Origin: Pseudomonas phage Bise
Direction: 5' to 3' (one strand)
Sequence record: OR683401.1
DNA length: 38,458 bases
The position numbers and the translations under genes are program-made. The notes under the pieces are model-generated. The model was not told where the DNA came from and did not search any database. It worked only from the letters and a program-made list of their open reading frames with translations. Position 1 is the stretch's first letter, and each line of letters starts with the position of its first letter. This document shows positions 5,831 to 38,456 of this stretch, in pieces.

Positions 5831-6324
5831 TGCGCTTGCTCCTGCTGGCTGACCCACGATTGCAGCGCCTTCAACTGTTCGGCGACTTCGTGATAGGTGG
5901 CGTAGTTTTCGACGACGGTGGCGGCAGCGGTTTCAACGCTGGCGGCGGGCGCATCAGCAACTCTGGCGGGGTCGGGAAGCTGGCCTTGGGCGGCGGCGTC
6001 GTGGAGCACGCGGAAACCGCCAGGCAAATCGCAGGCAGCAGCAGACGAAACATAGATTGGCACCTCCTTGATGATGTCCTTGCCGCGTTCCTTCACCACC
6101 TGGACGCGGTCAACGTATTGCGTCACCACCTGTGTGGTGACTTCGGCTTGGGTGGTTGCGGTCTGCGCAGCGGCCAGCTTCGTGGCTTCGCGTTCGGCGT
6201 CCCAGGCCGCAGTGACGCGGCCCTCGCCGTACTGACACCCGCCGATAGCGGACACGGCAACGATGCCGACCAGGCCCAGCAGCTTCCAGGGCAACGCGCG
6301 GATGAGGTCGATGGCGGCGCTCAT
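5827..6324 (-). CDS. Rz-like i-spanin
   Basis: 165 aa beginning MSAAIDLIRALPWKLLGLVGIVAVSAIGG (N-terminal TM anchor) followed by a periplasmic coiled coil; ATGA overlap with the holin stop. Confidence 0.55.
   Translation of the reverse strand: MSAAIDLIRALPWKLLGLVGIVAVSAIGGCQYGEGRVTAAWDAEREATKLAAAQTATTQAEVTTQVVTQYVDRVQVVKERGKDIIKEVPIYVSSAAACDLPGGFRVLHDAAAQGQLPDPARVADAPAASVETAAATVVENYATYHEVAEQLKALQSWVSQQEQAQ
5871..6053 (-). CDS. Rz1-like o-spanin embedded in +1 frame within Rz
   Basis: 60 aa; lipoprotein signal LLLPAICLAVSAC (lipobox) then proline-rich; lies entirely inside the Rz ORF. Confidence 0.5.
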   Translation of the reverse strand: MFRLLLPAICLAVSACSTTPPPKASFPTPPELLMRPPPALKPLPPPSSKTTPPITKSPNS

Positions 6325-15710: not shown

Positions 15711-15731
15711 CGCATCGGGCAAGGGCGGCCC

Positions 15732-15756
15732 GGAAAAACTAAAAGCCTTTACTGTC
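15732..15756 (+). promoter_or_regulatory. Late-promoter activator site (P_I): GGAAAAACTAAAAGCCTTTACTGTC
   Basis: Copy of the conserved dyad motif; centre about 41 bp upstream of the I ATG. Confidence 0.5.
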
Positions 15757-19006: not shown

Positions 19007-19213
19007 CGGCGGCGCTCTGTGCGGCCCTACAAGCCCTCTAAGCGCCCACGGTGTCCCGGTTGTATGGCCTGGGACGTTCGGACGCGCTGCGAATGTTCGC
19101 AAACGGCTGTGTGCGGCGATGGAAAGCCCAGGCCGGGATGCAGACGGCGGCGCAGGTTGAAAACCCCGCTGAAATCGCCTGCGCGCACCTGCGCGGCGGC
19201 CCGCTGCATCGCC

Positions 19214-19239
19214 AGCAAAAACTAAAGACCTTTACTGTC
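19214..19239 (+). promoter_or_regulatory. Late-promoter activator site upstream of gp36: CAGCAAAAACTAAAGACCTTTACTGTC
   Basis: Conserved dyad motif; centre about 42 bp upstream of the ATG at 19271. The downstream leader CGCTCGGCAAAGTG(A/G)CGGCATGGAC is near-identical to that of P_I. Confidence 0.5.
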
Positions 19240-28658: not shown

Positions 28659-29296
28659 ACATGGCCACGGGCGGCGTGCGCTACAAGCAGGGCATCGTGG
28701 CGGAGTCGCGGCCGGGCTTTGCCCGCGTTCGCTTCGACGATGTGGACGGCCTGGTCACGGCCTGGTTGCCGCTGCTGCACCCCAAGACCTTCGCCGACCA
28801 GGTGGTGTGGACGCTGGACGCGGGCGAGCACGTCGGCTGCATCCTGGACGAGTTCATGGAGGACGGCTGCATCCTCGGCGCGATCTATTCCGACGCCGAC
28901 GCGCCGCCGGTGAGCAGCCCGGACAAGTTCCGGCTCCAGTTCAAGGACGGCGGCTCGGTCGAGTACGACCGCAGCAGCGGGGCCATGAACATCGTCTGCA
29001 AGGGCGTTGCAAATCTGACCGCCGATGGCGACGTGACGGTGAAAGCGCCTTCGGTCACGCTGGACACGCCGCAGACCACCTGCACGGGCAAGCTGACCGT
29101 CGAGGGGCTGCTCTCGTATAACGGCGGCATGGTCGGCAAGGGTGGCAGCGGCGGCGCGGCCGCCAGCATCAGCGGCACCGTCGAGGTTGAAGGCCGACGA
29201 GATCAGCCTCAAGCAGCACCGGCACAAGGAACAGGGCGACGGCTCGCCGACCAGTGCGGCGATGCCGTAGCACCCGCAGAAACTAAAGCCCTTTAA
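28655..29296 (+). CDS. Baseplate assembly protein V-like (spike)
   Basis: 213 aa; gpV-like OB-fold N-terminus. Confidence 0.6.
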   Translation: MNMATGGVRYKQGIVAESRPGFARVRFDDVDGLVTAWLPLLHPKTFADQVVWTLDAGEHVGCILDEFMEDGCILGAIYSDADAPPVSSPDKFRLQFKDGGSVEYDRSSGAMNIVCKGVANLTADGDVTVKAPSVTLDTPQTTCTGKLTVEGLLSYNGGMVGKGGSGGAAASISGTVEVEGRRDQPQAAPAQGTGRRLADQCGDAVAPAETKAL

Positions 29297-29300
29297 TCGC
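29276..29300 (+). promoter_or_regulatory. Late-promoter activator site upstream of the baseplate operon: GCAGAAACTAAAGCCCTTTAATCGC
   Basis: Perfect TAAAG-CC-CTTTA dyad; centre about 42 bp upstream of the ATG at 29332; overlaps the 3' end of the V-like gene. Confidence 0.5.
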
Positions 29301-32358: not shown

Positions 32359-33288
32359 ATGGCAAACGTGACTGAAACCCCGACCTGGGAAGGCGGTGTC
32401 TACCAGATCGAAACCACCGACCCCGTGCTGGGCGGCCCCAATGGCATCGCCAACGTGCAGGCCAAGCAGCTCGCCAACCGCACCACGTACCTAAAGGCCC
32501 GCGCCGACCAGGTCGATGCGGCCAAGGGCAACCATGCCAGCCTGACCGCGCGCATGACCGCCATCGAGGCGGCCACCGAGGCGCTCGGGCCGGACGCCCA
32601 GGACGCATCCCTGGCCGCCATCAAGTTCGCCATCGACCAGGCGAATTTGGCCAACCAGGGCGTGCGTGGGCTGCACCAGTTCGCGCAGCAGGAAGGCGTG
32701 CTGACGATCAGCAACCGGGGCGTGGTCAGCGGCTGCACGGTGAGCAAGTCCACCACGGCCGCGCGCAACCTGCACATCTCGACCGGCACCTGCTTTGCCC
32801 AGGGGCGCAAGTTCGCGGTGGCAGACGGCAACAACGCTGCCTCGGTGCCCAGCAACACCGGCTCGGGGGCCGTGACCGTGTTCGCCTACCTGTTCCAGGA
32901 CGCCAGCGGCCTGTGGCGGCTGGCCGTGACGTCCATCGGCCAGGCCGTGCCGGACGGCTGCATCCGCCTCTACAACCTTACGGTGCCCGCCAACTCGACG
33001 GACGCCACCGACCCCAACTTGGCGGCCGTCACGCTCACCGATGTGCGCCGCGTCGAGGCCGGGTTCCCGATCTTGCTGGACAACCCCGCCTCGGCGTCGC
33101 CGCAGCTCGCGGCGCTGCCGGATTCGGCCTACCACGTCACCTTCGACGTGCTCTCGGCCAACGGCGCGCCCGCCGAGGCCAAGAGCCTGGTGGTGGCCAG
33201 CCGTGCCAGCAACGGCTTCACCGTGCGGCTGGCCGCCGCCGCCGACAACGTGGTGGCCCGCTGGCGGGTGAGCCGCCTCAATGCCTAA
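32359..33288 (+). CDS. Tail fibre protein
   Basis: 309 aa; N-terminal ...GGVYQIETTDPVLGGPNGIANVQAKQLANRTTYLK is the conserved baseplate-attachment motif of phage tail fibres. Confidence 0.65.
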   Translation: MANVTETPTWEGGVYQIETTDPVLGGPNGIANVQAKQLANRTTYLKARADQVDAAKGNHASLTARMTAIEAATEALGPDAQDASLAAIKFAIDQANLANQGVRGLHQFAQQEGVLTISNRGVVSGCTVSKSTTAARNLHISTGTCFAQGRKFAVADGNNAASVPSNTGSGAVTVFAYLFQDASGLWRLAVTSIGQAVPDGCIRLYNLTVPANSTDATDPNLAAVTLTDVRRVEAGFPILLDNPASASPQLAALPDSAYHVTFDVLSANGAPAEAKSLVVASRASNGFTVRLAAAADNVVARWRVSRLNA

Positions 33289-33646: not shown

Positions 33647-34741
33647 ATGACTATCTTCATCAAAGACGACCTGCGCGCGAGCGTGGAAGCGGCCACGGGC
33701 GGCCTTGTCACCGTGCTCTACACGGCGGCCGGGCATCCGAGCTACATGAACGTGATCCCCAAGTTCAACTTGCAGGACATCGACCCGGCGCTGGGCACCG
33801 GGGTGCATCCGGCTTTCATCGTCAACGGCGTGGAAAAGAGCGAGCTGTTCATCGGCCAGCATGTCGGCTGCGTCAAGGACAGCAACCTGCTGTCCTTCCC
33901 CGGCGCGGTGCCGCAGGTCAGCGCGAACTTCGACACCTTCAGGACGTGGGCGGCGAACAACGGCCCCGGCTGGCACATCATGACCAACGCCGAATGGGCG
34001 GCCATCGCCCTCTGGTGCTGGAAGAACGGCACGATGCCGCGCGGCAACAACAACTGGGGCCGTGATGTCGGCTCGACGTGGGAGACGGCCCGCCGTGTTG
34101 ATGGTGGCGCGCCTGGTGATGCCACGGGCAACGGCCGCCACTACACCGGCTCCGGCCCCGCCTCCTGGCGGCACAACGGCCAGGCCAACGGCATTGCCGA
34201 CCTGAATGGCAACGTGTGGGAGTGGTCGGGTGGCCTGCGCCTCAACGATGGCGAAATCCAGGTGCTGGCCAACAACGACGCCGCCGACAACACGAAAGAC
34301 CAGAGCAGCACCTCGACGCTCTGGAAGGCCATCAAGGCGTCGGATGGCTCGCTGGTTGCGCCGGGTACGGCGGGCACTTTGAAGTACGACGCGACGGGTG
34401 CCAACGGCACTGGAGGCAACGTGCTGTCCGACACCGTGACCAGCCGCTCTGGCAACGTGGGCGAGAACGACAACGTCAACGGCACCGGCCAGGCGTTCGA
34501 GAGCATGACTGTGAAGGCGGGGCTGACGGTGCCCGCCATCGCCAAGGTGTTGTGCTTGTATCCGCCTGTGGCGGGCCTGGGCGGCGATAACTTCTGGATG
34601 CGCAACCACGGCGAACGTCTGCCTCTGGCCGGTGGCAGCTATAACAATGGTGCCTCGGCTGGGGTGTTCGCGCGCGATCTCGCTAATGCACGAGCGAGTG
34701 TTAGCGGAAGCGTCGGCGCTCGCCCGGCCTATGTTCTTTGA
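33647..34741 (+). CDS. DGR variable target protein (Mtd-like receptor-binding protein; C-terminal FGE-sulfatase / C-type-lectin fold)
   Basis: 364 aa; GNVWEWSGG and NNWGRD motifs of the FGE/CLec fold; the last about 41 codons are the VR. Confidence 0.8.
   Translation: MTIFIKDDLRASVEAATGGLVTVLYTAAGHPSYMNVIPKFNLQDIDPALGTGVHPAFIVNGVEKSELFIGQHVGCVKDSNLLSFPGAVPQVSANFDTFRTWAANNGPGWHIMTNAEWAAIALWCWKNGTMPRGNNNWGRDVGSTWETARRVDGGAPGDATGNGRHYTGSGPASWRHNGQANGIADLNGNVWEWSGGLRLNDGEIQVLANNDAADNTKDQSSTSTLWKAIKASDGSLVAPGTAGTLKYDATGANGTGGNVLSDTVTSRSGNVGENDNVNGTGQAFESMTVKAGLTVPAIAKVLCLYPPVAGLGGDNFWMRNHGERLPLAGGSYNNGASAGVFARDLANARASVSGSVGARPAYVL
34615..34738 (+). repeat. DGR variable repeat (VR), 124 bp, at the 3' end of the target gene
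   Basis: Near-identical to TR 35329-35452; all 9 differences fall at TR adenines. Confidence 0.85.
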
Positions 34742-34791
34742 AAGGGGGTGCGGTAGCACCCACCAGCAGCGCAACAGCATGTGATGGGTCT

Positions 34792-34824
34792 CCCGGTCGC
34801 GTTAGCGACCGGGCGATTTTTTTT
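34792..34824 (+). other. GC-rich hairpin with 4-nt loop (CCCGGTCGC-GTTA-GCGACCGGG) followed by T8; DGR target-recognition hairpin and/or terminator
   Basis: About 54 bp downstream of the VR; 9-bp stem. Confidence 0.55.
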
Positions 34825-34880
34825 CAGGGGGTGGTGCGATAAAATCGCAAGCGGATTTTGATTGGGGAGGCGGGGCTGGA

Positions 34881-35294
34881 ATGGCGGTAGATCGGGAAGC
34901 GCAACTGGTGCGCAAGTTCGTGGAGTTCTCGAAGCTCCTCAATGTGTACCTAAACCACTTTCCCCGCCACGAACGCTACGCCCTCTCGAACCGAATCCGA
35001 AACGCCGCCTATGACGTCTACGACTTGATCGTGGAAGGTCAGAAGCGGTACCACAAGAAGACGTCCCTCACGCAGCTTGACATTGCCCATGAGCAATTGC
35101 GGATGCAGTTGTTTCTGGCCTATGAAATGGGCTATTTCAAGTTCACGGACGGACGCACCGAAGGGAACGCGGTAGAAGTAGAAGCGAAACGCTGGCAGGC
35201 GATCAGCAAGCTGGTGGATGAGCTGGGCCGCATGATCGGAGGTTGGATACGGCACGAGCTGGCCGAATCGAAAGAGGCAGGCCAGCAGAAATGA
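34881..35294 (+). CDS. avd: DGR accessory variability determinant (Avd), four-helix-bundle protein
   Basis: 137 aa basic helical protein; similarity pattern to BPP-1 Avd; sits between target and TR. Confidence 0.75.
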   Translation: MAVDREAQLVRKFVEFSKLLNVYLNHFPRHERYALSNRIRNAAYDVYDLIVEGQKRYHKKTSLTQLDIAHEQLRMQLFLAYEMGYFKFTDGRTEGNAVEVEAKRWQAISKLVDELGRMIGGWIRHELAESKEAGQQK

Positions 35295-35328: not shown

Positions 35329-35452
35329 ACGTCTGCCTCTGGCCGGTGGCAACTATAACAATGGTGCCTCGGCTGGGGTGTTCGCGCGCAATCTCAATAA
35401 TGCACGAACGAATGTTAACGGAAACGTCGGCGCTCGCCCGGACTGCGGCTTC
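35329..35452 (+). repeat. DGR template repeat (TR), 124 bp
   Basis: Invariant donor copy; 9 AAY (Asn) codons in the VR reading frame; followed by a diverged IMH*-like region. Confidence 0.85.
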
Positions 35453-35605
35453 TTCCTCAAACCTCGAATGGGGATAGTGGAGCCATAGGGATAGGTCGTC
35501 CTGCTTGCCCGCGTAGCGGGCAGCGAACTCGTAGTCACTCCGCGCTTTTTGGTAGGGTTCGGCCCGAAGACCAGCGCGGAGTTTTTTTTGGGGTATGGAG
35601 GGGCA
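35453..35605 (+). ncRNA. DGR spacer region between TR and RT with nested hairpins (35499-35518; 10-bp stem 35537-35546/35573-35582 followed by T8)
   Basis: Non-coding 153 nt with strong secondary-structure potential; analogous to the Sp region of the BPP-1 DGR RNA. Confidence 0.45.
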
Positions 35606-36637
35606 ATGAAGCGGCACGGGAACCTGTTTGAGCAGACCTTCACCCGCGAGGCGCTGTACGACGCCTACGTGGAGGCCAGGCGCGGTAAGCGCCTGCGCAA
35701 GGCGTGCTTCTGGTTCGACATCCGCGCCGGTGCCGTGCTGGACTGGCTGCACCGCCGCCTGCACGATGGCAGCTATGAGATTCGCGGCTACAAGCGGTTC
35801 CTGGTGCATGAACCCAAGACCCGCGAAATCTGCGCGCCGTGGTTCGGCGACATCGTGGTACAGCACGCCATCTACTCGGTCATCAGGCCGATCTTCGAGC
35901 GTGTATTCATCGACCAGTCCTTCGCCTGCCGACTCGGCAAGGGTACACACAAGGCTTCCGAGTACGCGATGGCGGCGCTGCGCCAGAGCCGCCCCGACAG
36001 CTACACCCTCAAGCTCGACATCAGGAAATTCTTTTACCGCATCGACCGGGGCATCCTGCGCAAGCTCATCGAGCGCAAGATCAAGGACAAGCGCCTGGTG
36101 GACATGATGATGAAGTTCGCCGAGCTGCCCGAGCCGCTGGGCATCCCCATCGGCAACCTGCTCTCGCAGGTCTATGCGCTGATCTACCTCAACGCCCTCG
36201 ACCACTTCGTCAAGCGCGAACTGAAGGTGAAGCTCTACTGCCGGTACGTGGACGACTTCATCCTGTTCGACCTCGACCGGGAACAGTGCCTGGAATACAA
36301 GGCGCGCATCGAAGCGTTCCTGCACAACGAGCTGCACCTGGAGCTGTCGAAGTGGACGATGGCCAAGACCAAGCGCGGGGTGAACTTCGTGGGCTACCGC
36401 ACCTGGCGGCGGGCCAAGTTCATCCGCAAATACAGCCTGTTCAAGTTCCGGCGGGCGGCCAAGCGGGGGAAGACGGACAGCGTCATATCGCTGCTGGGCC
36501 ACGCCAAGCACTCGCACTCGCTTGGGTTCATGTGGCGCACCATCCGCGAGGTCAATCCCGACCTGGTGCGCAAGCTGCCGCCGAAGGTGAGGCGCTTCTA
36601 CCCGGCCAGGCCGAGCGCGCCGCCGCAGCAAAACTAA
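35606..36637 (+). CDS. DGR reverse transcriptase
   Basis: Start MKRHGNLFEQ with RBS GGAGG; motifs IGNLLSQ and YVDD typical of DGR RTs. Confidence 0.9.
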   Translation: MKRHGNLFEQTFTREALYDAYVEARRGKRLRKACFWFDIRAGAVLDWLHRRLHDGSYEIRGYKRFLVHEPKTREICAPWFGDIVVQHAIYSVIRPIFERVFIDQSFACRLGKGTHKASEYAMAALRQSRPDSYTLKLDIRKFFYRIDRGILRKLIERKIKDKRLVDMMMKFAELPEPLGIPIGNLLSQVYALIYLNALDHFVKRELKVKLYCRYVDDFILFDLDREQCLEYKARIEAFLHNELHLELSKWTMAKTKRGVNFVGYRTWRRAKFIRKYSLFKFRRAAKRGKTDSVISLLGHAKHSHSLGFMWRTIREVNPDLVRKLPPKVRRFYPARPSAPPQQN

Positions 36638-36648
36638 AGTGCTTGAAT
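36625..36648 (+). promoter_or_regulatory. Late-promoter activator site (P_com / P_mom equivalent): GCAGCAAAACTAAAGTGCTTGAAT
   Basis: Partial copy of the dyad motif overlapping the RT stop; about 200 bp upstream of com. Confidence 0.4.
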
Positions 36649-36840
36649 GGCGGTGCGTGGGGGAAAGCCGGATGCTATCGGCTGAAAAGGACGGGCGACC
36701 CCACCCGGTGCTGGAACACCGGACGGAACCCCAATCAAGCAGACAAGCCTGCAAGACCGGCCAAGGCCCGCCACCTGGTACCAGGCGGTTCTTAGCCTAT
36801 CAGAATCTGCAAATGGTTTGCAGAAAAGGGCTTGTTCGCT

Positions 36841-37044
36841 ATGACGGAGATTCGTTGCGCCGCTTGCTCCCGCAAGCTGGGAGAGGGTGAGTTCACCCGC
36901 CTTGTCATCAAGTGCCCGCGTTGCCGGGCGCTCAACACCTTGAAGGCCGAGAGCCTCCCGCCAGAACGCCACCGAGCGTCCAGCTCCGAAAGGTTGCCCG
37001 ATGGAAGGCTCCATGATCGCGGAGGCGCAATCCCGCCTCGATGA
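36841..37044 (+). CDS. com: Com-like zinc-finger translational activator
   Basis: 67 aa; MTEIRCAACSRKL...IKCPRCRALN CxxC...CxxC as in Mu Com; overlaps the start of the downstream modification gene. Confidence 0.6.
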   Translation: MTEIRCAACSRKLGEGEFTRLVIKCPRCRALNTLKAESLPPERHRASSSERLPDGRLHDRGGAIPPR

Positions 37045-37825
37045 CGTCCAGGCCGTGCCGCTTGTCCCCTGGGTGGGTGGCAAGCGCCGCCTGGCCCCGC
37101 ATATTCTCCCGCTGCTGCCAGCGCATACCTGCTACGTCGAACCGTTCGCGGGCGCGGCTGGCTTGTTCTTCTCCAAGCCGCCCAGCAAGGTCGAGGTGCT
37201 CAACGATGTGAACGGCGACCTGGTCTGCCTGTACCGCGTGGTGCAGCATCACCTGGACGAGTTCATGCGGCAGTTCCGCTGGTCGCTCACCAGCCGCCAG
37301 ATGTACGCCTGGCTGCGGGAAACGAGGCCAGACACCCTTACGGACATCCAGCGGGCGGCGCGCTTCTTCTACCTCCAGAAACTCGCCTTCGGCGGCAAGG
37401 TGGACGGCCAGACCTACGGCACGTCCACCACGGCCCCGATGCGCCTGAACCTGCTGCGGCTGGAGGAGGACTTGAGCGCGGCCCACCTGCGGCTGCACCA
37501 GGTCAACATCGAGAACCTGGACTGGCACGCCTGCATCACGCGCTACGACCGCAAGCACACCCTGTTCTTCTGCGACCCGCCGTACTACGGCACCGAGGGC
37601 TACGGCGTCGAGTTCGGCCTGGAGCAGTACGACCGCATGGCCGAGCTGCTGCGCACGATGAAGGGCAAGGCGGCCGTCACTGTGAACGACATCCCGGCCA
37701 TGCGTCAGGCGTTCAAGGGGCTGGCCATGAAAAGCCTGGCCATCCGCTACACGCTCGGCAAGGCCGGGGCCGGTCGGCAAGAGCGCGGCGAGCTGCTGGT
37801 GATGAACTACGAGCCGGGCGGTTGA
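37001..37825 (+). CDS. N6-adenine DNA methyltransferase, Dam / D12 class (in the mom position)
   Basis: Motif I EPFAGAAGLF near the N-terminus and motif IV DPPY (FFCDPPYYGTEGYG); start may be at 37013. Confidence 0.8.
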   Translation: MEGSMIAEAQSRLDDVQAVPLVPWVGGKRRLAPHILPLLPAHTCYVEPFAGAAGLFFSKPPSKVEVLNDVNGDLVCLYRVVQHHLDEFMRQFRWSLTSRQMYAWLRETRPDTLTDIQRAARFFYLQKLAFGGKVDGQTYGTSTTAPMRLNLLRLEEDLSAAHLRLHQVNIENLDWHACITRYDRKHTLFFCDPPYYGTEGYGVEFGLEQYDRMAELLRTMKGKAAVTVNDIPAMRQAFKGLAMKSLAIRYTLGKAGAGRQERGELLVMNYEPGG

Positions 37826-38372: not shown

Positions 38373-38456
38373 CTGCAATTCTCTTTCAACCTTTGGCGCT
38401 CCACCGGAGGGGCGTTTATCGCGGCTCCGAGGCCGCAGTTATCGCGGCGCGCTTCA
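38373..38456. mobile_element. Mu-like right end: terminal ...GCGGCGCGCTTCA-3' with repeated TTATCGCGG (38417-38424, 38440-38448) transposase-binding-like sites
   Basis: Terminal 13 nt resemble the Mu terminus (GCGCCGCTTCA); repeats in the last 60 bp. Confidence 0.6.

Follow-up and report, generated by a model that had tools for sequence, protein, structure and literature searches.

A complete and very probably active BPP-1-type diversity-generating retroelement at the right end of the BcepMu-like prophage Pseudomonas phage Bise

The sequence record OR683401.1 of Pseudomonas phage Bise (38,458 nucleotides, over its whole length referred to as the window) essentially amounts to a single prophage, that of a BcepMu-like transposable myovirus. 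With high confidence we conclude that the locus at its right end is a complete and currently active diversity-generating retroelement (DGR) of the BPP-1 type. To judge from the sequence, all parts by which a DGR is recognised are present: a template repeat (TR) and a variable repeat (VR) that differ at adenines, a reverse transcriptase (RT) of the DGR clade, a C-type-lectin target gene with the VR at its 3' end, the accessory variability determinant Avd, and a TR that stays invariant while the VR turns over. On the plus strand the order is a tail-fibre open reading frame (ORF), a small ORF, the target gene with its VR, a hairpin, a terminator-like site, avd, the TR, a 161-nt spacer and the RT gene (Table 1).

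VR and TR are direct repeats on the plus strand with an offset of 714. When the comparison was extended both ways, the homology ran from 34615/35329 to 34730/35444 with a sharp stop at both ends. An earlier note on this DNA had placed a repeat of 124 nt at 34615-34738 and 35329-35452, with 115/124 identities. Its start and offset hold, but the true length is 116 nt and the last 8 nt lie beyond the homology; over the longer span there are actually 109/124 identities, with six extra mismatches at other bases than adenine. These six (34731-34738 vs 35445-35452, at TR G, C, G, C, T and C) are the end of the homology, where the flank on the side of the initiation of mutagenic homing sequence (IMH) meets that on the IMH* side, as in BPP-1, and they are not counter-evidence. 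That no TR C, G or T is changed, as had also been claimed, is correct inside the 116 nt and incorrect for the 8 nt that follow.

Within the 116 nt our alignment agrees with the nine mismatches reported before, all at TR adenines (35352, 35390, 35396, 35397, 35408, 35412, 35418, 35424 and 35442), seven of them A>G and two A>C. The residue changes from TR to VR match exactly as well: N>S, N>D, N>A, T>A, N>S, N>S, N>S and, as the terminal change, D>A. With 25 adenines in 116 nt the probability that nine out of nine mismatches fall on A is 2.7e-7 (hypergeometric), well in line with the value below 1e-5 that had been anticipated; when the fixed position described below is left out, the same test with eight mismatches gives 1.2e-6. 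Orientation and frame were likewise as described, with the VR in frame and forming the final ~40 codons of ORF 33647-34741. As many as 21/25 TR adenines are at codon positions 1-2, and nine codons are of the type AAY. A second VR was not found in the window, where the adenine-free 28-mer core occurs twice only and the repeat family (D1) has two copies; the VR is therefore single.

The activity of the element is seen when copies of the prophage are compared. The exact RT protein is recorded in 50 blocks of the assembly collection, and eight public copies (L085-L092) with identical RT protein and TR were compared over ~5.85 kb of phage DNA, the host-flank bases 38457-58 being set aside. The window is 100% identical to CP115295.1 (L085), a 6.28-Mb chromosome (GCA_036236995.1), and L091 equals the window at every aligned base and has the same VR allele as L085. 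Five copies with other VRs (listed as L086-L090 and L092) exhibited 11-17 differing sites each, all in the VR except one single-nucleotide polymorphism (SNP) at 34132. The TR is identical base for base in all copies while the VR varies, with seven alleles. In total there are 88 VR differences from the window, 86 of them at TR adenines, against the one SNP elsewhere in ~5.85 kb, which bears out the earlier suggestion that the element has been active in this lineage.

Over the seven alleles A is replaced by G 31 times, by T 26 times and by C 25 times. Of the TR adenines in the varying portion 21/22 vary, the exception being that at repeat position 27 (counted from the first base of the repeat). 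The synonymous third-position adenines at positions 76, 79 and 94 were also changed among the alleles, thus indicating a mutational process rather than selection. Six copies have one host junction, presumably from the same insertion event, and carry five VR alleles; L086 and L087 are at different junctions. A contig from the IMG/VR collection (L002), 98.5% identical to the window, differs from it at A sites only over the 67 nt of VR that it covers.

Two other explanations have to be set against these alleles. The locus could be a fossil, in which the VR/TR differences record ancient homing by an element that no longer works. Indeed, the window alone cannot separate old from recent events, and its allele, with only eight changed adenines, is common to the two assemblies L085 and L091. 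A fossil does not, on the other hand, account for seven alleles among prophages that over 5.85 kb have a single SNP outside the VR, or for the five alleles within the group that shares one insertion junction. The RT and Avd, like the TR, the hairpin and the spacer, are intact as well as conserved. Alternatively, the repeats could be an ordinary duplicated segment that has diverged by point mutation, gene conversion, selection or adenine deamination, without reverse transcription. Seven of the eight changes in the window allele are A>G transitions, as one-strand adenine deamination gives, but a strand-specific restriction to A has a chance of about 3e-7, and the A>T and A>C changes that make up 26 and 25 of the substitutions in the sister alleles cannot come from deamination. 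Neither does such divergence fit with a TR that is constant while the VR changes, or with a DGR-clade RT and Avd in the same locus. The allele series in near-identical copies therefore leaves hardly any room for either explanation: we regard a fossil as very improbable, and ordinary divergence of a duplicated segment as next to inconceivable.

Relatives of the RT were found in IMG/VR (177) and in representative genomes of GTDB (93), with hosts that are mostly Betaproteobacteria but include Geobacter, Psychrobacter and others; the closest RTs are those of a Burkholderiaceae metagenome-assembled genome (93%) and of uncultivated IMG/VR contigs (up to 85%). From viral loci of the same layout (VR, ~430-640 nt with avd, ~115-nt TR, ~120-190-nt spacer, RT) 62 distinct TR/VR pairs were collected. 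In at least 55/62 of these related pairs, and in 7/7 alleles of the present prophage, the TR has GACT where the VR has GCCT, that is A35442 and C34728. Because the same difference is fixed in at least 55 of the pairs and in every allele, the ninth mismatch (D>A) is a fixed boundary difference and not a product of mutagenesis. The earlier note had read all nine differences as the signature of mutagenic homing; this stands for eight, and the genuine mutagenic differences in the window allele are accordingly seven A>G and one A>C.

The repeats end in a GC-rich GTCGGCGCTCGCCCGG that is common to VR and TR, followed by the family-wide fixed C (VR) or A (TR), and then by diverged flanks. By homology with BPP-1 this VR 3' end would have the role of the IMH and mark the homing boundary, and in the TaqVP paper the equivalent invariant last seven residues are taken as the IMH. 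The fixed C/A difference is probably part of the distinction between IMH and IMH*, although an Ala codon under absolute selection could give the same fixed base.

The RT has BPP-1 bRT as its best match in PDB (8ub7), with group II intron RTs far behind at 1e-18. It is 40% identical to bRT, and all bRT residues that were checked, K29, F66, R74, I76, D138, I181, G182, S186, Q187, D215 and D216, are conserved. The motifs IGNLLSQ and YVDD are present and by sequence place the enzyme in the DGR clade, which is characterised by an [I/L]GxxxSQ motif 4 and YxDD. In the cryo-electron microscopy paper on bRT, residues of the fingertip and of the N-terminal extension were described to contact the template and the incoming dNTP; these residues, as well as the catalytic aspartates, are kept in the RT of the window. 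The match of Avd to PF22296 scored 54.5 bits (cut-off 40), while a comparison of Avd with PDB gave nothing beyond a weak match to a 23S-IVS-like protein.

The target protein is a full-length homologue of TaqVP (PDB 5VF4; E=8e-103, residues 3-364 vs 7-385), a C-type-lectin variable protein with a crystal structure, from the DGR of a Thermus aquaticus prophage, and matches phrog_2889 with E=1e-139. A Pfam scan of the protein gave no domain at E<=0.01, and its identity came only from PDB 5VF4 and PHROGs. From about 50% sequence homology, a TaqVP-like C-type lectin fold of the formylglycine-generating enzyme type is predicted. The upstream ORF (32359-33288) matches tail-fibre phrogs, with the small ORF between it and the target gene. 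A position after tail-fibre genes and homologues annotated as antireceptors point to a putative receptor-binding role.

The VR has 11 mutable codons (nine AAY, one TAT and one ACG), for which a repertoire of ~6e11 proteins was computed. None of the seven alleles has a change in the Tyr codon TAT, with the adenine at position 27, whose counterpart in the alignment with TaqVP is the non-variable W349; this suggests purifying selection at this codon. Both proteins have a C-terminal VR that ends in an invariant ARPA[YF]VL, and in both the variable AAY codons have among them an aromatic residue that does not vary (Y here, W349 in TaqVP). On the other hand, TaqVP comes from another host phylum and another phage and has 9 mutable codons compared to the 11 here, and the target of the window is known by its sequence.

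Downstream of the VR, 49/49 distinct loci, including BPP-1 (GCGGGGCC-GAAA-GGCCCCGC), have a hairpin motif whose loop reads G[AG]NA and which starts 12-42 nt past the VR. Since a search for perfect stems under-called relatives with bulges, a loop-anchored search was used instead. The stem covaries, with 8/9 pairs changed on both sides, and 72.6% of cells pair compared to 53.5% in shuffles (0/500 as high). The G-run at 34744-34748 beside the hairpin is G5 in the window, as in CP115295.1, and G6 in L086 and L088 (base-level check) and in the more distant L004; L087 and L089-L092 have the same 1-nt length offset there. A homopolymer error of long-read sequencing may explain the G5 of the window; a real G5 would cost the extended hairpin stem one of its outer base pairs.

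For the spacer of the DGR RNA (Sp), RNAalifold exhibited compensatory changes in 16/22 pairs. In the duplex between the TR flank and Sp 81.6% of cells pair; shuffles gave 68.1%, and 0/2000 of them were as high. An additional G in the TR flank goes together with an additional U in the spacer. The two pairs adjoining A35485 were formed in 29/29 distinct pairs and covary as GC, TA and AT (anchor-defined comparison). A35485 itself is near-invariant, being A in 49/50 loci, and lies opposite the invariant C35446. In BPP-1 a template:primer duplex is formed by TR117-129 and Sp47-56, with priming at A56, and by analogy with this Sp A56 we propose A35485 as the candidate priming adenosine. The long spacer stem, 35537-35590 with its run of eight T, ends 16 nt before the RT start codon and resembles an intrinsic terminator; it is conserved and covarying in relatives, with the T-run in the closest relatives only. 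Stem and T-run could set the 3' terminus of the DGR RNA.

The prototype DGR of BPP-1 (mtd-avd-TR-brt) resembles the locus in gene order and spacing logic, Avd family and RT. In both, the VR makes up the last codons of a tail receptor-binding gene (in the present phage a putative one), a GC-rich segment lies at the repeat 3' end, a GNNA-loop hairpin follows the VR, and a duplex of TR 3' flank and Sp adjoins a conserved A in a spacer of similar length (144 nt in BPP-1, 161 nt here). The differences are in the details. The target of the window is not Mtd, to which it has weak local similarity, but a TaqVP-type single-domain protein in which the beta-prism/beta-sandwich trimerisation domains of Mtd were not detected. 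BPP-1 has a 21-bp IMH with 5 differences, whereas here the homology stops 3 nt after a single fixed A/C difference; its hairpin has an 8-bp stem 4 nt after the repeat, compared to 6 bp and 15 nt here; and its avd is separated from VR and TR by 35 and 0 nt, compared to 150 and 34 nt. The priming A of BPP-1 pairs with U at the duplex end, whereas the candidate A is opposite C inside a longer duplex. Finally, BPP-1 is a podovirus and the present phage a transposable myovirus.

Similar elements are found in Vibrio VHML, Pseudoalteromonas ACA1/ACA2, Klebsiella Kp48xx prophage-like phages, Bacillus BalMu-1 and the Bacteroides hankyphage, with targets 36-44% and RTs 35-40% identical and the DGR at the tail-fibre end. 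For ACA1 and ACA2 the TR was reported to be identical between the genomes, and the antireceptor VR to follow an A>N pattern; hankyphage is a transposable phage with a DGR. A megablast of the locus against deposited phages gave no DNA-level match, all protein matches to deposited phages were below 60% identity, and an exact VR/TR pattern scan of the GTDB representative genomes gave no match.

The mechanism with the best support is that of BPP-1, by homology with which the element would work as follows. A complex of RT and Avd would bind an RNA that spans the avd 3' end, the TR and the ~160-nt spacer. The spacer would fold back onto the sequence just 3' of the TR (GGCTTC:GGAGCC), and cDNA synthesis would be cis-primed there, probably from the conserved A35485. 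The RT would copy the TR faithfully, with misincorporation opposite adenines only, and the cDNA would replace the VR (34615-~34727) in one direction. Four features would give the replacement this direction: the GC-rich, IMH-like end of the repeat, the C/A difference that is fixed there, the flank that has diverged and the hairpin downstream. In the target, a C-type lectin, rewriting would thereby be limited to the AAY-rich codons of its ligand-binding face, with ~6e11 variants, and the presumed outcome is that tail receptor binding is retuned. That the RT family uses a minimal one-base discriminator between IMH and IMH*, primes in a geometry unlike that of BPP-1, and diversifies its target during prophage residence in one clonal lineage is, as a joint proposal, put forward tentatively and is rather less likely to hold in full than not.

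Some observations weigh against a complete and active DGR. The case is built here entirely from sequence. TR adenines account for 903/933 mismatches in the related pairs (55% A>G, 24% A>C and 21% A>T), a fraction (97%) that is somewhat inflated at the repeat edges as the pair finder penalised non-A mismatches. Two VR changes among the alleles of the prophage are at TR thymines (positions 51 and 54). The thermodynamic fold of the DGR RNA (minimum free energy) was not distinguishable from shuffles (z=-1.26), and support for RNA structure therefore comes from the covariation. A scan around avd, TR and RT gave no sigma-70-like promoter for these genes. Finally, the alleles of L089 and L092, where the VR is at locus positions 2009-2124, have 12 substitutions in common at repeat positions 62-96 and differ only at positions 29, 30 and 32, that is in the 5' part, while partial homing anchored at the 3' IMH predicts a changed 3' part and a kept 5' part. 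It is possible that these two alleles are mosaics, formed by recombination between alleles or as the consensus of a mixed population.

Such mosaic-looking alleles would also be expected if the VR variation among assemblies were an assembly or consensus artefact, caused by a 116-nt repeat or by mixed reads, and so would related IMG/VR contigs that break inside or right after the VR, or a homopolymer indel like that beside the hairpin in the window. We find this highly unlikely because mis-placed TR reads would restore adenines and not give new G, C or T at A sites only. Moreover, the same allele occurs in two independent assemblies (L085 and L091), and at position 114 all VRs have C and all TRs have A.

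Contigs L001 (locus start), L002 and L003 (locus ends) from IMG/VR break in the VR or at the target stop codon, at window positions 34741, 34681 and 34680, respectively. In several isolate assemblies the whole prophage is a separate contig of ~38.5 kb with <100 nt of host flank. The former are likely assembly breaks due to the VR/TR repeat or to VR heterogeneity, and the separate contigs likely reflect a transposable phage in more than one context. Literature searches by assembly accession found no papers that mention these assemblies.

The window allele, carried by L085 and L091, encodes a surface rich in Ser, Asp and Ala by virtue of its seven A>G among eight genuine changes. We considered whether this excess was a sign of another mechanism and rejected it, given a family spectrum with 55% A>G, under which seven or more of eight have P about 0.07, and sister alleles with all three substitutions; the excess is a borderline, post-hoc observation.

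Table 1. Positions of the DGR features in the window.
Feature	Position	Strand	Description
DGR target (variable protein) gene	33647..34741	+	364 aa; just after tail-fibre genes; VR is the last ~40 codons
VR	34615..34730	+	116 nt; 107/116 identities with TR, 9 mismatches, each at a TR adenine
Varying portion of VR	34637..34710	+	Corresponds to TR adenines at repeat positions 23-96: nine AAY codons, TAT, ACG and three third-position adenines
IMH-like VR 3' end	34712..34741	+	GC-rich GTCGGCGCTCGCCCGG, fixed C34728 (TR A35442), then flank diverged from the TR flank; encodes invariant GARPAYVL*
DNA hairpin/cruciform	34746..34761	+	GGGTGC-GGTA-GCACCC, 6-bp stem; 3' of VR
Terminator-like site	34792..34826	+	9-bp stem (8 GC pairs; 34792-34813), then T-run; after target gene
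avd (accessory variability determinant)	34881..35294	+	137 aa; PF22296 bAvd E=1.9e-14; phrog_3206 'Avd protein of DGR' E=4e-22
TR	35329..35444	+	116 nt, 25 adenines, non-coding; unchanged across all eight prophage copies
Spacer (Sp) of DGR RNA	35445..35605	+	161 nt; duplex, hairpins and long stem; alignment of 55 spacers
TR-flank:Sp duplex	35447-35452 : 35479-35484	+	GGCTTC : GGAGCC; flank bases begin 3 nt after TR
Spacer hairpins	35462-35473, 35488-35501, 35505-35522	+	Spacer alignment
Long spacer stem	35537-35545 / 35574-35582	+	ACTCCGCGC...GCGCGGAGT, then T8
DGR reverse transcriptase	35606..36637	+	343 aa; RVT_1 E=6e-17; PDB 8ub7 (BPP-1 bRT) E=4.5e-53

The rest of the window is that of a Mu-like phage. 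A Mu-type transposase (phrog_310) and a MuB/transposition protein (phrog_296) are encoded on the minus strand; the structural genes comprise portal, terminase, protease, capsid, sheath, tape measure and baseplate, and the sheath/tube DNA is 66% identical to that of BcepMu. The window begins with TG (TGAA), and the right end of the phage, ...GCGCGCTTCA (...GCTTCA), is at 38456, followed by two bases of host DNA. Among the copies there are three host junctions, around position 5850 of the compared loci, the flanks of L086 and L087 differing from those of the other six, as expected for Mu-like transposition. An Rfam gathering scan of the whole window matched no family.

A 29-nt motif (GCCCGGAAAAACTAAAAGCCTTTACTGTC and variants, family D3) occurs in four copies, at 15728-15756, 19211-19239, 29272-29300 and 36623-36651. 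Three of them start exactly 60 nt before an ATG (15788, 19271 and 29332), and the fourth, which lies upstream of com, overlaps with the stop codon of the RT gene. Mu has four late promoters, and by analogy the motif copies may be control sites of late operons; if so, avd, TR and RT would lie between the terminator at 34792-34813 and the last motif copy. A Com-type zinc-ribbon gene (36841-37044; PF10122, E=3e-12) overlaps the start of a D12-class N6-adenine DNA methyltransferase gene (37001-37825; PF02086, E=1e-28), and the pair is at the position of com-mom in Mu. This sequence arrangement suggests Com-type translational control of a Dam-like methylase.

In kind the element offers no new biology: it is a textbook DGR with hundreds of close relatives in public viral and genome collections, and DGRs on temperate and transposable phages are already well documented (BPP-1, VHML, ACA1/ACA2, BalMu-1 and hankyphage). 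Its value lies in a clean natural series of seven VR alleles in near-identical copies, where the changes at silent adenines make mutation separable from selection. The family alignment in addition gives testable predictions for the spacer RNA, which concern the duplex, A35485 as the candidate for priming and the A/C base fixed at the boundary. If the DGR does diversify its target during prophage residence in one clonal lineage, the isolate series is a natural time course of DGR turnover, and a cultivable host with a complete genome (CP115295.1) together with related isolates would permit this turnover to be measured in a lysogen.

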